Notes: generated by a model not told the origin, from the letters alone. A stretch of 64,000 nt of DNA from Escherichia coli (GCF_003334785.1 NZ_QOWV01000001.1); one strand, 5' to 3'; positions 42,452 to 54,052 are shown, counted from the first letter of the stretch. Numbers and translations are program-made.

Positions 42452-42465
42452 AACAAAAAACCCAT
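42452..42465. repeat. Candidate attL core (left copy of 14-bp direct repeat)
   Basis: AACAAAAAACCCAT is identical to 54039-54052. Confidence 0.6.
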
Positions 42466-42484
42466 TTATGTAAACGGGTTAATG

Positions 42485-42521
42485 AAAACAATAAGTTAGG
42501 TTAAAAACAATAAGTTAGGTT
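42485..42521. repeat. Tandem 18-bp direct repeat (2 copies) next to the int 3' end; candidate integrase arm-type sites
   Basis: AAAACAATAAGTTAGGTT at 42485-42502 and 42504-42521, followed by TGGTGGT-CAG-TGGTGGT. Confidence 0.5.
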
Positions 42522-42539
42522 GGTGGTCAGTGGTGGTTA

Positions 42540-43592
42540 TTACGGGGTAATGCCAACCGCTGCCGCCACTTTGTCGCCACTTGGCAGCGTTGCCAGAGGA
42601 TTGAAACGGAGCGCCGTTTCTAGATGATCCGGTGCCAGATGTGCGTAACGCATAGTCATTTTTATATCGTGGTGTCCGAGAATTTTTTGTAAGGCCAGAA
42701 TGTTTCCACCCGACATCATGAAGTGCGCCGCAAACGTATGGCGCAGAACGTGTGTGAGTTGACCGCGAGGGAGCACGATAGACGTTTTTTCCATCACGGA
42801 TAAAAATTGAAAATAGCAGTCTGTGAAGAAATTGAACCCATCAAGCGCCATGATCTCTTCGTAAAGCTCTTTACTGATAGGGATGCTTCTGTTTTTCTTC
42901 CCCTTCGTTCTGACAAAGGTAATTCGGTATTTGGTCACCTGTGAGCGGGTAAGATTTACGGCTTCACGCCAGCGTGCGCCTGTGCTTAAGCATATCTTAA
43001 CTACCAGTGCCAGAATTGGGTCCTGACGTTTGCAATCAGCCAGCAATTCAACAATCTGCTCATGGGTAAGCCATGCCATCTCTTTTTCTGCGATGGTGAA
43101 TTTTCGCATGTTCTCCAGTGGGTTCGGATACGACCATTCGCCCAGACGGGATAGTTCGCTAAAAACACTACTTAGATAGCTTTGCTCCAGGTTAATGGTG
43201 ACCGGGCTTGCTCCTTTCTTCCATTTCTCGCTGAAGTAGATCTCGCCTGTCAGGCGTTTATCTCGATAGTGGGCAAACATTTTAGAGGTGAGATCGGTTG
43301 CAAGAGGATTGCCCAGAGCGTCAACCATCAACAGCAATTTGTCATAGACATGCTGCCCAGCTGTCAGAGATTTACCATGTAGTTTGAACCATAGCTCAAC
43401 CACGTCTTTCAGTGTTCGACGATCCACTGATTCACCCAGCCAGGGCTTTGCTTCGGTTTCTTCCATCGTGTGGCGCTCAAAAGCCAGTGCTTCGCCTTTG
43501 GTGGCGAATTGTTTACGCACACGACGCCCACTTCGTCCGGCGGGGTAACATTCGCAAAGCCATTTCCCTGTGGTTAGTTTTCGTACTGCCAT
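42540..43592 (-). CDS. int: Phage integrase, tyrosine recombinase (P2/186 Int-like)
   Basis: 350-aa ORF with catalytic signature STGARWREA, HVLRHTFAAHF and MRYAHL. Confidence 0.92.
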   Translation of the reverse strand: MAVRKLTTGKWLCECYPAGRSGRRVRKQFATKGEALAFERHTMEETEAKPWLGESVDRRTLKDVVELWFKLHGKSLTAGQHVYDKLLLMVDALGNPLATDLTSKMFAHYRDKRLTGEIYFSEKWKKGASPVTINLEQSYLSSVFSELSRLGEWSYPNPLENMRKFTIAEKEMAWLTHEQIVELLADCKRQDPILALVVKICLSTGARWREAVNLTRSQVTKYRITFVRTKGKKNRSIPISKELYEEIMALDGFNFFTDCYFQFLSVMEKTSIVLPRGQLTHVLRHTFAAHFMMSGGNILALQKILGHHDIKMTMRYAHLAPDHLETALRFNPLATLPSGDKVAAAVGITP

Positions 43593-43674
43593 AAAAAGCC
43601 CTCATATCAGAGGGCTAAATTTAACTGTATATGTAACCAGTAATCAATGTGTGATTACTATGAAACATACATTG

Positions 43675-52073: not shown

Positions 52074-52555
52074 TGATGGTGCTGGGATTGTACGTGTTTA
52101 TGCTGCGCACCGTGCCGTATCAGGAACTGCAGTATCAGCGCAGCTGGCGACATGCGGCTAACAGCCGGGTAAATCGTCGTCCGTCCACGCAGTTTCTGGG
52201 ACCGGACAACGACATGCTGACGCTTTCCGGTGTTCTTATGCCGGAGATAACAGGCGGCAGGCTGTCGTTGCTGGCACTGGAGCAGATGGCAGAACAGGGG
52301 AAAGCATGGCCTCTGATTGAAGGCAGCGGCACGATTTACGGCATGTATGTGATTGAGGGACTGAATCAGACTAAAACGGAGTTTTTCCGCGACGGTATGC
52401 CGCGCCGGATTGAGTTCACCCTGTCGCTCAAACGGGTGGATGAATCCCTGTCCGATATGTTCGGTGATCTCAGTGCGCAGCTGAATAATCTGCAGGGAAC
52501 GGCAACATCAGCCTTAAGCGATATCAGTAAAACGGTGGGAGGGCTTCTGTCGTGA
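52070..52555 (+). CDS. Phage tail protein U (P2 gpU-like)
   Basis: 161-aa ORF overlapping tape-measure stop and gpD start, in P2 T-U-D order. Confidence 0.75.
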
Positions 52556-53652
52556 ATTTCAGCTCTGAACTGCTTAACAAAGGCAACAAAACTCCGGCAT
52601 TCAGCATCAGTATTGAAGGCAGGGATATCACCACTGTGCTGGACAACCGCCTGATGGGGCTGACGCTGACGGATAACCGGGGATTTGAAGCGGATCAGCT
52701 TGATCTGGAGCTGGACGACGCCGATGGAAAAATCGTGCTGCCGCGCCGTGGTGCGGTCATTACGCTGGCGCTGGGCTGGAAGGGGCAGCCGCTTTTCCCG
52801 AAAGGGGCATTCACGGTGGACGAGATTGAACACACTGGCGCACCGGACCGCCTGACTATCCGGGCGCGAAGTGCTGATTTTCGGGAAACCCTGAATACCC
52901 GCCGTGAAAAATCTTGGCACAAGACCACCGTCGGGGAAGTGGTAAAGGAAATAGCCGCGCGTCACAAGCTGAAGATGGCGCTGGGTAAAGACCTGTCGGA
53001 TAAGCCCGTGGAACATATAGACCAGACTAATGAGAGTGACGGCAGTTTTCTGATGCGGCTGGCGCGACAGTACGGTGCCATCGCGTCGGTGAAAAATGGC
53101 AATCTGCTATTCATCCGGCAGGGGCAGGGCAAAAGCGCCAGTGGTAAACCACTGCCAGTGATCACTATCACACGCAAGGACGGCGACAGTCACCGCTTTA
53201 CCCTGGCAGATCGCGGAGCCTACACGGGCGTAATTGCCAGCTGGTTGCATACCCGCGAACCTGCGAAGAAAGAAAGCACCACGGTGAAGCGTAAGCGCAG
53301 AACTAAGAAGCAGAAGAAAGAGCCAGAAGCGAAGCAGGGCGATTACCTGGTGGGTACGGATGAAAACGTGCTGGTACTTAATCGCACTTATGCCAACCGG
53401 AGCAACGCCGAACGAGCGGCGAAAATGCAGTGGGAACGCCTGCAACGCGGCGTTGCGTCATTCTCGCTACAACTGGCAGAAGGGCGGGCAGATCTCTACA
53501 CGGAAATGCCAGTGAAAGTCAGTGGCTTTAAACAGCCGATAGATGATGCGGAATGGACCATTACGACTCTGACGCATACCGTCAGCCCGGATAACGGTTT
53601 TACGACCAGTCTGGAGCTTGAAGTGAGGATTGATGATTTCGAAATGGAATGA
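52552..53652 (+). CDS. Phage tail/late control protein D (P2 gpD-like)
   Basis: 366-aa ORF after U and before the ogr-like gene. Confidence 0.75.
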   Translation: MNFSSELLNKGNKTPAFSISIEGRDITTVLDNRLMGLTLTDNRGFEADQLDLELDDADGKIVLPRRGAVITLALGWKGQPLFPKGAFTVDEIEHTGAPDRLTIRARSADFRETLNTRREKSWHKTTVGEVVKEIAARHKLKMALGKDLSDKPVEHIDQTNESDGSFLMRLARQYGAIASVKNGNLLFIRQGQGKSASGKPLPVITITRKDGDSHRFTLADRGAYTGVIASWLHTREPAKKESTTVKRKRRTKKQKKEPEAKQGDYLVGTDENVLVLNRTYANRSNAERAAKMQWERLQRGVASFSLQLAEGRADLYTEMPVKVSGFKQPIDDAEWTITTLTHTVSPDNGFTTSLELEVRIDDFEME

Positions 53653-53742
53653 TTCTTCGCAATGGAGAACTTTTAAGTTTGCAAAATGGAATAATGCGGT
53701 ATCATTATTGTGAATTTAGCAAAAATGGGGAGAACTCGAAAA

Positions 53743-53961
53743 ATGATGATTTGCCCACTGTGTGGAAGTGCCGCCCATACTCGCAGCAGTTTTCAGGTAT
53801 CTTCATTGACCAAAGAGCGTTACAACCAGTGCCAGAACATTAACTGCAGCCATACTTTTGTTACCCATGAAACTTTTGTTCGTTCGATTGCAACGCCAAA
53901 AGAGTCAAATCCGGTTCAGCCGCATCCAATGAAATCAGGACAGGTGGCGCTCTCTCTTTGA
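53743..53961 (+). CDS. ogr: Late-gene transcriptional activator, Ogr/Delta (186 B) zinc-finger family
   Basis: 72-aa product MMICPLCGSAAHTRSS...CQNINCSHTF with the C-x2-C...C-x4-C zinc finger, last gene before attR. Confidence 0.85.
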   Translation: MMICPLCGSAAHTRSSFQVSSLTKERYNQCQNINCSHTFVTHETFVRSIATPKESNPVQPHPMKSGQVALSL

Positions 53962-54038
53962 CGCTGCCGCCATTTTGTCGCCATCGTTAAAAAACAGTGT
54001 TTCTAACATCATGATTTTAAACAGCTTAAATTTCAGGC

Positions 54039-54052
54039 AACAAAAAACCCAT
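54039..54052. repeat. Candidate attR core (right copy of 14-bp direct repeat)
   Basis: AACAAAAAACCCAT is identical to 42452-42465. Confidence 0.6.

Follow-up and report, generated by a model that had tools for sequence, protein, structure and literature searches.

A P2/186-like prophage remnant with a SNIPE homologue at the 3' end of the rybB small RNA gene in Escherichia coli

What lies between the core genes rcdA and ybjL in the Escherichia coli record NZ_QOWV01000001.1 (assembly GCF_003334785.1), and how did it come to be there? The 64,000-nucleotide stretch of this record that we analysed, hereafter the window, holds about 11.6 kb of phage-type genes at this locus (42452-54052), and an initial annotation made from the sequence alone had proposed that they represent a cryptic P2/186-family prophage whose bounding 14-bp direct repeat is a duplicated attachment (att) core. 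Our comparisons make it very probable that a temperate P2/186-family prophage entered the 3' end of the small RNA (sRNA) gene rybB and afterwards suffered an internal deletion. The kind of element is ordinary and already described, and its site is known; it carries a recently characterised defence gene, SNIPE.

The attachment core and its target

Two copies of the 14-mer AACAAAAAACCCAT, and no more, are present in the window (42452-42465 and 54039-54052), each on the plus strand; 100 dinucleotide-preserving shuffles of the window yielded none. The two copies flank the phage block, int ending at 42540, 75 nt from the left core (attL), and ogr at 53961, 78 nt before the right core (attR). Outside the 14 bp, attL and attR are unrelated, except for an imperfect identity on the left side that amounts to 22 of 25 bp with the core included. 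E. coli K-12 MG1655 has one core copy (887976-887989), and its flanks agree with those of the window at 100% identity for 1000 nt leftward and 1500 nt rightward, from which it follows that the insertion measures exactly 11,587 bp. The alignment and annotation of MG1655 thus agree with the initial annotation on the flanks (rcdA rightward and ybjL leftward, as in K-12), on the bounding of the phage genes by the repeat, on an insertion of about 11.6 kb and on the absence of a prophage from this locus in K-12. A synthetic query for the empty site, in which a single core was placed between 400 nt from either flank, aligned as one piece in 4294 of the 5426 complete E. coli genomes searched, in many cases at 100% identity, and with rcdA and ybjL annotated; empty-site genomes without the 14-mer at the junction were looked for and none was seen. 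Since the empty site has a single copy in K-12 and in these 4294 genomes, the repeat is a true duplication of the target core and not a chance match.

The corresponding phage site is found in a circularly permuted P2-like genome, OM835953 ('Klebsiella phage KP12 clone KP12_3'), which runs T-U-D-ogr, an intergenic stretch, then int-SNIPE-cI. Its attP, the spacer between ogr and int, consists of the left arm of attR in the window, the same 14-mer and the right arm of attL in the window. The four sites attB, attP, attL and attR are thus related as expected if an integrase inserted the phage by a crossover within the 14 bp, in agreement with the att core duplication that the initial annotation thought plausible. 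That the repeat is coincidental, the block having arrived by homologous recombination through its flanks or with a transposon, could be argued from the shortness and A-rich composition of the 14 bp. However, the repeat stands exactly where identity to K-12 stops and resumes, the attP of the circular relative is made of two phage arms around these same 14 bp, more than 1000 genomes share both junctions, the shuffles never produced the 14-mer, and no insertion sequence (IS) or transposase gene was found among the window open reading frames (ORFs) in or adjoining the block. We therefore give a coincidental repeat practically no credence. As to the record itself, OM835953.1 bears the title of a Klebsiella phage and is classified in the Vequintavirinae, yet it contains a complete P2/186-like genome with a rybB-type attP; it is probably a mislabelled co-induced or contaminating temperate phage.

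Both arms contain candidate integrase (Int) binding sites. Tandem 11-nt repeats of the form TGYCGCCAYTT, present in each arm, fit the arm-type consensus YAYCGCCAYTY of the 186 record; the pair inside the 3' end of int (TGCCGCCACTT/TGTCGCCACTT) matches it by eye at 10 of 11 positions in each repeat, and the pair in the P arm (TGCCGCCATTT/TGTCGCCATCG) is conserved in the KP12_3 attP. The two 18-nt repeats of the P' arm (AAAACAATAAGTTAGGTT) are also kept in this attP with few mismatches and may be bound by protein.

The locus named in the initial annotation, between rcdA and ybjL, stands, but the target is not plain intergenic DNA: it is the 3' end of an sRNA gene, which is rebuilt intact at attR. 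The RybB model of Rfam (RF00110) matches 54039-54117 on the minus strand over its full length (model positions 1-79 of 79, 105 bits), and because this match ends at the first base of the attR core, that base is the 3' end of rybB. Read on the RNA strand, the core is AUGGGUUUUUUGUU and comprises the last five bases of the terminator stem and the U-tail of RybB. The K-12 annotation likewise places rybB between rcdA and ybjL, with an offset of 3 nt from the Rfam match, the core corresponding to the 3'-terminal 11-14 nt of the gene. The P2-like prophages Rybb*W, Rybb*B (with retron Ec86) and Rybb*Cr of E. coli W, B and Crooks have been described as inserted in the rybB non-coding RNA, with the site empty in K-12 (Archer et al., 2011; PMC3032704). 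These prophages have site, phage family and defective state in common with the element studied here. Among the sites given for P2 is another sRNA gene, cyaR (PMC3032704), which means that P2-type phages, too, target the 3' end of an sRNA gene. The review of P2-like integrases by Nilsson and Haggard-Ljungquist makes no mention of ybjK, ybjL or rybB.

Of the 5426 complete genomes, 1033 have the attL junction (rcdA-core-int) and 1105 the attR junction (ogr-core-rybB-ybjL), so that about one E. coli in five (~19-20%) has rybB-site junctions. The block is absent from about 79% of the genomes and is thus mobile rather than core, in keeping with the initial annotation.

Phage family and internal deletion

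From its gene content (Table 1), the element is a defective remnant of the P2/186 family (Peduoviridae) and not a functional member. The order of its divergent switch is 186-like, with cI leftward and the apl-like gene, cII and fil rightward, and the late block runs T-U-D, then ogr, then att, as in the family. Phage 186 (Eganvirus ev186, NC_001317) shares with it the order int-cI-apl-cII-fil, followed further on by A, the late genes and the position of the ogr-type activator, with protein identities of 56% for Int, 70% for CII and 32% for CI, besides the arm-type repeats described above. Together with PHROG matches for gpA, tape-measure, tail and Ogr proteins, these values bear out the family assignment of the initial annotation. 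The int counterpart WP_000290937 is annotated as phage integrase in a relative with 99.95% DNA identity across the region. The switch is thus of the 186 and not of the P2 type, but the specificity of the integrase differs, since 186 uses the 3' end of the tRNA-Ile gene ileY and the element uses rybB. In addition, 186 lacks dam as well as a SNIPE gene between int and cI, and its complete genome measures 30.6 kb. P2 (NC_001895) has the gpA nickase and the T-U-D-ogr block beside att in common with the element, whereas its switch consists of a small C repressor and Cox instead of CI, Apl and CII, its att site is different, and its defence genes old and tin lie beside cos, and not between integrase and repressor as SNIPE does. 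The P2 remnant of K-12 (ogr-D' at cyaR) has kept the ogr-proximal end in its decay, as has the element in the window.

The element owes its cryptic state to an internal deletion. Over its first 7819 nt it is 99.95% identical to rybB-site prophages of many E. coli genomes in which the A gene, encoding 804 aa, is intact. Identity to intact A ends at 50270, and from 50269 onwards it gives way to 96.6% identity with the distal portion of T in KP12_3; the junction reads ...GGCGTGCGGGTG/ACGAAGGATG... (here and below a slash marks the break), with a TG shared by both parents. The resulting chimeric ORF (48969-52073, 1034 aa) joins in frame residues 1-434 of A to the last ~600 aa of T, and its alignment to an intact T protein (P0027) starts at about T residue 424-426. 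According to the alignment with P2 and 186 gpA, the HUH motif (AEPHHDG, from codon 436), the catalytic YIAKYISKNIDG and the homologue of the nick site at the replication origin (ori; ~codon 678) all lie beyond the break and are deleted. Since the retained part of A is 99.9% identical to intact A genes, the gpA nuclease was lost by decay. Maps of fuller relatives give a deletion of ~22-23 kb, which also took the DinI/Tum-like gene, the cargo slot beside cos, and the genes for portal, terminase, scaffold, capsid, lysis, baseplate, fibre, sheath and tube. Among the ORFs of the island and its PHROG matches no gene was found for portal, terminase, capsid, lysis, baseplate, fibre, sheath or tube, nor was a P2-type cos found in the element when up to three mismatches were allowed. 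With A cut at codon 434, no cos and the virion genes gone, the remnant would be unable to replicate or to be packaged.

Two other readings of the block can be weighed against this evidence. A complete, inducible P2/186-like prophage producing virions would account for the intact int, cI, cII, apl-like, U, D and ogr genes and for two perfect att sites, but relatives measure ~33-35 kb against 11.6 kb here, A is cut before its HUH motif, catalytic tyrosines and ori, and the virion genes, lysis genes and cos are missing; we regard this reading as extremely improbable. The genome of phage P4 is 11.6 kb long, and a P4-like or phage-inducible chromosomal island (PICI)-like satellite of about 11.6 kb, exploiting a P2-type helper, would therefore fit in size; it would also fit in the presence of an integrase, a repressor and a late-gene activator of the ogr/delta family, and in the frequency of compact related remnants at the rybB site. 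Against a satellite, the left 7.8 kb are 99.95% identical to full-length prophages and the right part is 96-97% identical to their T-U-D-ogr end, and the two parts meet in mid-gene at one junction with 2-nt microhomology, for which one deletion in a full-length phage suffices. Moreover, cos is absent, primase/helicase, sid, psu and capsid-remodelling genes are not among the island ORFs, and the remnants of other genomes have different, unrelated deletions, as random decay predicts. A satellite thus seems to us most improbable, if marginally less so than a complete prophage, and we retain the reading of a deleted prophage.

The exact A'::'T junction was found in none of the 5426 complete E. coli genomes. 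An identical chimera (P0002), annotated from an internal start as a protein of 850 aa and named 'phage tail tape measure protein', is present in an NCBI draft E. coli genome. FDAARGOS_1248 and CFSAN061772, considered as carriers of the same remnant, were rejected, being tandem double lysogens whose ogr-attP-int joint mimics the compact element. Tandem double lysogens at the rybB site (NZ_CP069542, NZ_CP042893) have the order ...T-U-D-ogr, hybrid att, int-cI... and look like compact remnants in a BLAST summary.

Many of the junction-bearing genomes contain differently deleted remnants: O'::'D in PSJ-16; A'/lysC and V'/'T, plus IS5, in EC05; Q'/'D in FDAARGOS_1250. In the E. coli B lineage (NZ_CP085842, 872000-892700), the copy likewise adjoins rcdA and ybjL with its int...ogr ends, but it has three deletions instead of the single A'::'T, namely an in-frame cII'::'A (two pseudogenes according to PGAP), O'::lysozyme' and invertase'::'D. 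Its cargo also differs, consisting of a retron St85-family reverse transcriptase with an effector in the slot after A, presumably retron Ec86, and a 63-aa gene between int and cI, where the window has SNIPE.

The history that we propose begins with a temperate P2/186-family myophage, equipped with a 186-type lysogeny switch, that would have integrated into the 3' end of rybB. Its tyrosine integrase would have recombined attP with attB by strand exchange within the shared 14 bp, and this location of the exchange explains the duplication of the core. In reverse complement, AACAAAAAACCCAT gives the last five bases of the stem and the U-tail of the RybB terminator; rybB would have been regenerated at attR, and at the other end the T-run of the attL core would complete a phage-encoded hairpin that resembles an int terminator: in the hairpin at 42459-42480, the stem is phage-encoded and the T-tail is supplied by the attL core. 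At some point the low-GC SNIPE gene would have been acquired horizontally between int and cI. A later single deletion of ~22-23 kb, at TG microhomology, would have joined codon 434 of A to about codon 426 of T. It would have removed the HUH/tyrosine nuclease domain of A and ori, the Tum/DinI-like SOS antirepressor, the cargo slot and cos, together with every gene for capsid, terminase and lysis and those for baseplate, fibre, sheath and tube. What is left would be incapable of replication, packaging and lysis, with int, cI, the apl-like gene, cII and both att sites intact.

Table 1. Features of the rybB-site element and its host flanks (positions in the window).
Feature	Position	Strand	Basis
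rcdA, left host flank	41899..42435	+	ORF end 42435; 100% identical to K-12 flank; annotated rcdA in K-12 and relatives
attL core AACAAAAAACCCAT	42452..42465		exact 14-mer; left, bacterial arm identical to K-12; right, phage arm identical to KP12_3 attP
hybrid terminator-like hairpin and T-run downstream of int	42459..42480	-	AACCCGUUU-ACAU-AAAUGGGUU then UUUUGUU; -9 kcal/mol, z = -2.5 (terminator scan, RNA fold)
two 18-nt direct repeats AAAACAATAAGTTAGGTT, P' arm, candidate protein-binding sites	42485..42521	+	repeat finder, copies 100% identical
int, tyrosine integrase, 350 aa	42540..43592	-	phrog_1 integrase, E = 6e-75; 186 Int, 56% identity over 334 aa, E = 2e-139
tandem 11-nt repeats TGCCGCCACTT/TGTCGCCACTT, candidate Int arm-type sites inside int 3' end	42561..42582	+	repeat finder
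terminator-like hairpin after SNIPE gene	43597..43616	-	AGCCCTC-TGATAT-GAGGGCT then TTTTAT (scan)
SNIPE / PD-Lambda-1 homologue, 558 aa	43675..45351	-	PADLOC, Pfam, RefSeq names
cI immunity repressor, 186 type, 198 aa	45372..45968	-	phrog_4 transcriptional repressor; 186 CI, 32% identity, E = 3e-34
candidate early pR-like promoter TTGACA-17-TAGTAT	45962..45990	+	consensus scan 10/12; position as 186 pR; inferred
apl/cox-like small helix-turn-helix protein, 73 aa	46064..46285	+	same coordinates as coding sequence WP_000188448 in relatives, annotated Cox protein in phage 813R9
cII, 169 aa	46318..46827	+	phrog_101 CII-like activator; 186 CII, 70% identity over full length
fil-family gene	46835..47131	+	Fil family annotation in relative with 99.9% DNA identity
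DUF5347 gene, early operon	47249..47590	+	phrog_602; RefSeq annotation
DUF2732 (P2 orf80-like) gene	47658..47891	+	RefSeq annotation of relative; P2 Orf80 and 186 counterpart bear the same DUF2732 label
TraR/DksA-type zinc-finger protein	47891..48118	+	TIGR02419, 66 bits vs cut-off 59.7
Dam-family DNA adenine methyltransferase	48115..48972	+	TIGR00571, 318 bits vs cut-off 115; phrog_56
A', first 434 codons of gpA rolling-circle replication endonuclease	48969..50270	+	phrog_91 'nicking at origin', residues 2-434
A::T deletion junction, 2-nt TG microhomology	50269..50272	+	blastn pieces overlap at 50269-50270; three-way comparison GGGTG/ACGAAGG
'T, last ~600 codons of tape-measure gene	50271..52073	+	phrog_5690/phrog_28 and TIGR01760, residues ~420-1034 of chimera
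gpU-like tail protein	52070..52555	+	phrog_76, E = 2e-83; same-position gene in relatives matches Pfam Phage_P2_GpU
gpD-like late control/tail protein	52552..53652	+	phrog_52, E = 1e-175; RefSeq name 'phage late control D family protein'
ogr late-gene activator, 72 aa, four-Cys zinc finger	53743..53961	+	phrog_603, E = 8e-30; CPLC...CQNINC in translation; RefSeq ogr/Delta-like
tandem TGCCGCCATTT/TGTCGCCATCG, candidate Int arm-type sites in P arm	53965..53986	+	read from sequence; motif as at 42561-42582; conserved in KP12_3 attP
attR core AACAAAAAACCCAT	54039..54052		exact 14-mer; left, phage arm matching KP12_3 attP; right, K-12 sequence
rybB sRNA gene, intact	54039..54117	-	Rfam match; terminator 3' arm and U-tail come from attR core; stem then UUUUUUGUU in RNA fold
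ybjL, right host flank	54197..55882	-	ORF of 561 aa; annotated ybjL in K-12 and relatives

Elsewhere in the window, 12113-12155 on the minus strand matches the Rfam family of the ES036 (CssrF) sRNA (41.6 bits, gathering score 37.6). A second stretch of low GC content (0.42), at 28000-30000, lies within two large ORFs (27377-29803 and 29811-31139), which we take from the K-12 gene order to be probably yliE and yliF.

The SNIPE homologue and the present role of the remnant

The 558-aa protein encoded between int and cI matches the PD-Lambda-1 profile of PADLOC over residues 106-550 (E = 2.4e-120). Pfam recognises in it DUF4041 (PF13250; residues 267-322, E = 3e-12) and a C-terminal nuclease of GIY-YIG type at residues 427-520 (T5orf172, E = 8e-17; MUG113, E = 2e-19). 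Near the N-terminus its translation has a putative membrane helix, the unbroken hydrophobic run AIVILLLAFLAPVLAVILF at residues 5-23, and the protein also has a coiled coil. Near-identical proteins are named 'SNIPE associated domain-containing protein' or 'DUF4041 domain-containing protein' in RefSeq. PD-Lambda-1 is said to stem from the 2022 screen of Vassallo and colleagues. SNIPE has been characterised as a membrane-anchored nuclease that cleaves the DNA of lambda and other siphoviruses during injection, its DUF4041 domain contacting the tape-measure protein, and none of the myoviruses and podoviruses of the BASEL collection is susceptible to it (bioRxiv 10.1101/2025.11.03.685801). This inactivity against myoviruses fits its carriage by a P2-type myophage. 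The window homologue resembles the characterised SNIPE/PD-Lambda-1 in being a single gene and in its N-terminal helix, DUF4041 and C-terminal GIY-YIG/T5orf172 domain, but it is longer (558 aa vs profiles of 491-496 positions), with some 105 N-terminal residues outside the profile match; in SNIPE, the N-terminal stretch is described as the diversified, partner-binding part (bioRxiv 10.1101/2025.11.03.685801).

The GC content of the SNIPE region is 0.36 (44000-45500), and this low value, together with the gene's own terminator-like hairpin, fits an acquisition of the moron type. The same slot between int and cI is occupied by SNIPE in PSJ-16, EC05, KP12_3, 813R9 and FDAARGOS_1250, and by a 63-aa gene of the YdcA family in the B lineage, E300010, FDAARGOS_1248 and CFSAN061772.

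Judging from the genes retained, the remnant today likely serves in superinfection immunity, mediated by CI, and in defence against siphoviruses, mediated by SNIPE, of which the copy in the window is presumably active. We infer that the genes of the remnant are expressed, that it can still excise and that it is kept by selection. Our interpretation has several weak points, and all of them concern function. The differing 105 N-terminal residues may give the SNIPE protein of the window other partners, targets and specificity, the hairpin between SNIPE and int may limit int expression, the apl-like gene has marginal similarity to 186 Apl (E = 2e-4), and the remnant could simply be undeleted rather than selected. 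Nothing that contradicts the structural interpretation was found.

Recurrent deletion endpoints

The endpoint in A, GCGGGTG/GCTGAGCC, one codon before the codons of the HUH motif, is used at the same nucleotide in four remnants and with four partners (between 50270 and 50271 in the window, 9070 and 9071 in locus L002, 13197 and 13198 in L010, from the B lineage, and 6006 and 6007 in L012). The partner is T in the window; in EC05, the left side of A is joined to lysB/C, and in the B lineage and in TUM12355, whose prophage is related but has another integrase, cII and the DUF2732 gene, respectively, are joined to the right side of A. In each case the partner sequence to the left of the break resembles GCGGGTG (GCAGATG, GCGAGTG, GCGGTA and CCGGATG). 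Other breakpoints in A lie at codons ~352, 404, 427, 493, 558 and 647. Endpoints in T recur as well. T439 (K/VNALPQ) served as an endpoint three times, joined to invertase, to sheath and to T270, with confirmation at the DNA level (L015, ~8182; L016, ~9063; L017, ~4770), T716 three times (P0005-P0007) and T105 twice (P0004, P0080), and in the sample examined six junctions fall within the 14 codons T426-T439. Partners of T endpoints include the invertase, the sheath, internal T and three different positions in A, with 3-7 nt of microhomology; over all junctions, microhomology ranges from 2 to 7 nt. A survey around the A breakpoint gave 45 partial matches in 1269 records. The sampling of breakpoints was ad hoc, and its protein-database view covers in-frame fusions only. 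Some events may be nested re-deletions, and the junction of the window could itself derive from a junction of the EC05 type through a shared TGACG.

We regard the re-use of deletion endpoints as real. Identity of the A breakpoint with the gpA nick at ori was considered and rejected, because the nick (P2 29892, 186 28576) aligns at about codon 678, ~240 codons downstream, and the sequences are dissimilar; a literature search on the cleavage site of the P2 A protein yielded nothing usable. The Chi-like octamer GCGGGTGG spans the A breakpoint and, speculatively, could explain the junctions that keep the left side of A, but not those that keep the right side. It is conceivable, though we think it unlikely, that the decay of P2/186-like prophages is non-random and reflects site-preferring breakage or strand transfer, for instance through secondary cleavage by gpA, an HUH protein with two tyrosines, or through Chi-like end protection.

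The remnant might be seen as a domesticated module of immunity and SNIPE defence under selection, with endpoints set by such a site-preferring process instead of random decay. This would account for the 99.9% identity of int-SNIPE-cI-...-A' across many unrelated strains, for the recurrence of the A breakpoint at the same nucleotide with differing partners (EC05, B lineage, TUM12355) and for the re-used sites in T. On the other hand, the high identity can be explained by recent spread of the phage, all junctions show ordinary microhomology of 2-7 nt, the recurrent site is ~240 codons from the ori nick and has no resemblance to it, and some seemingly independent events are possibly nested secondary deletions in an ad hoc sample. 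We thus hold domestication to be a doubtful proposition, and prefer the history of prophage integration followed by deletion.

For annotation, 42452-54052 is best described as a defective rybB-site P2/186-like prophage with a SNIPE defence gene, and the 1034-aa ORF as an A'::'T deletion chimera rather than a tape-measure protein. The finding is mostly a confirmation of textbook knowledge, namely that P2-type phages target the 3' ends of sRNA genes and that prophages decay internally while their ends are kept. Of possible importance beyond this strain is the recurrent A endpoint alone; if it is real and enzymatic, it would point to a mechanism of prophage domestication, an activity that would repeatedly turn active prophages into immobile immunity and defence modules. 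For the biology of the strain, the remnant probably helps to protect its host from lambda-like and other siphoviruses and to make it immune to related P2/186 phages, at a locus in which backbones otherwise identical to K-12 differ.

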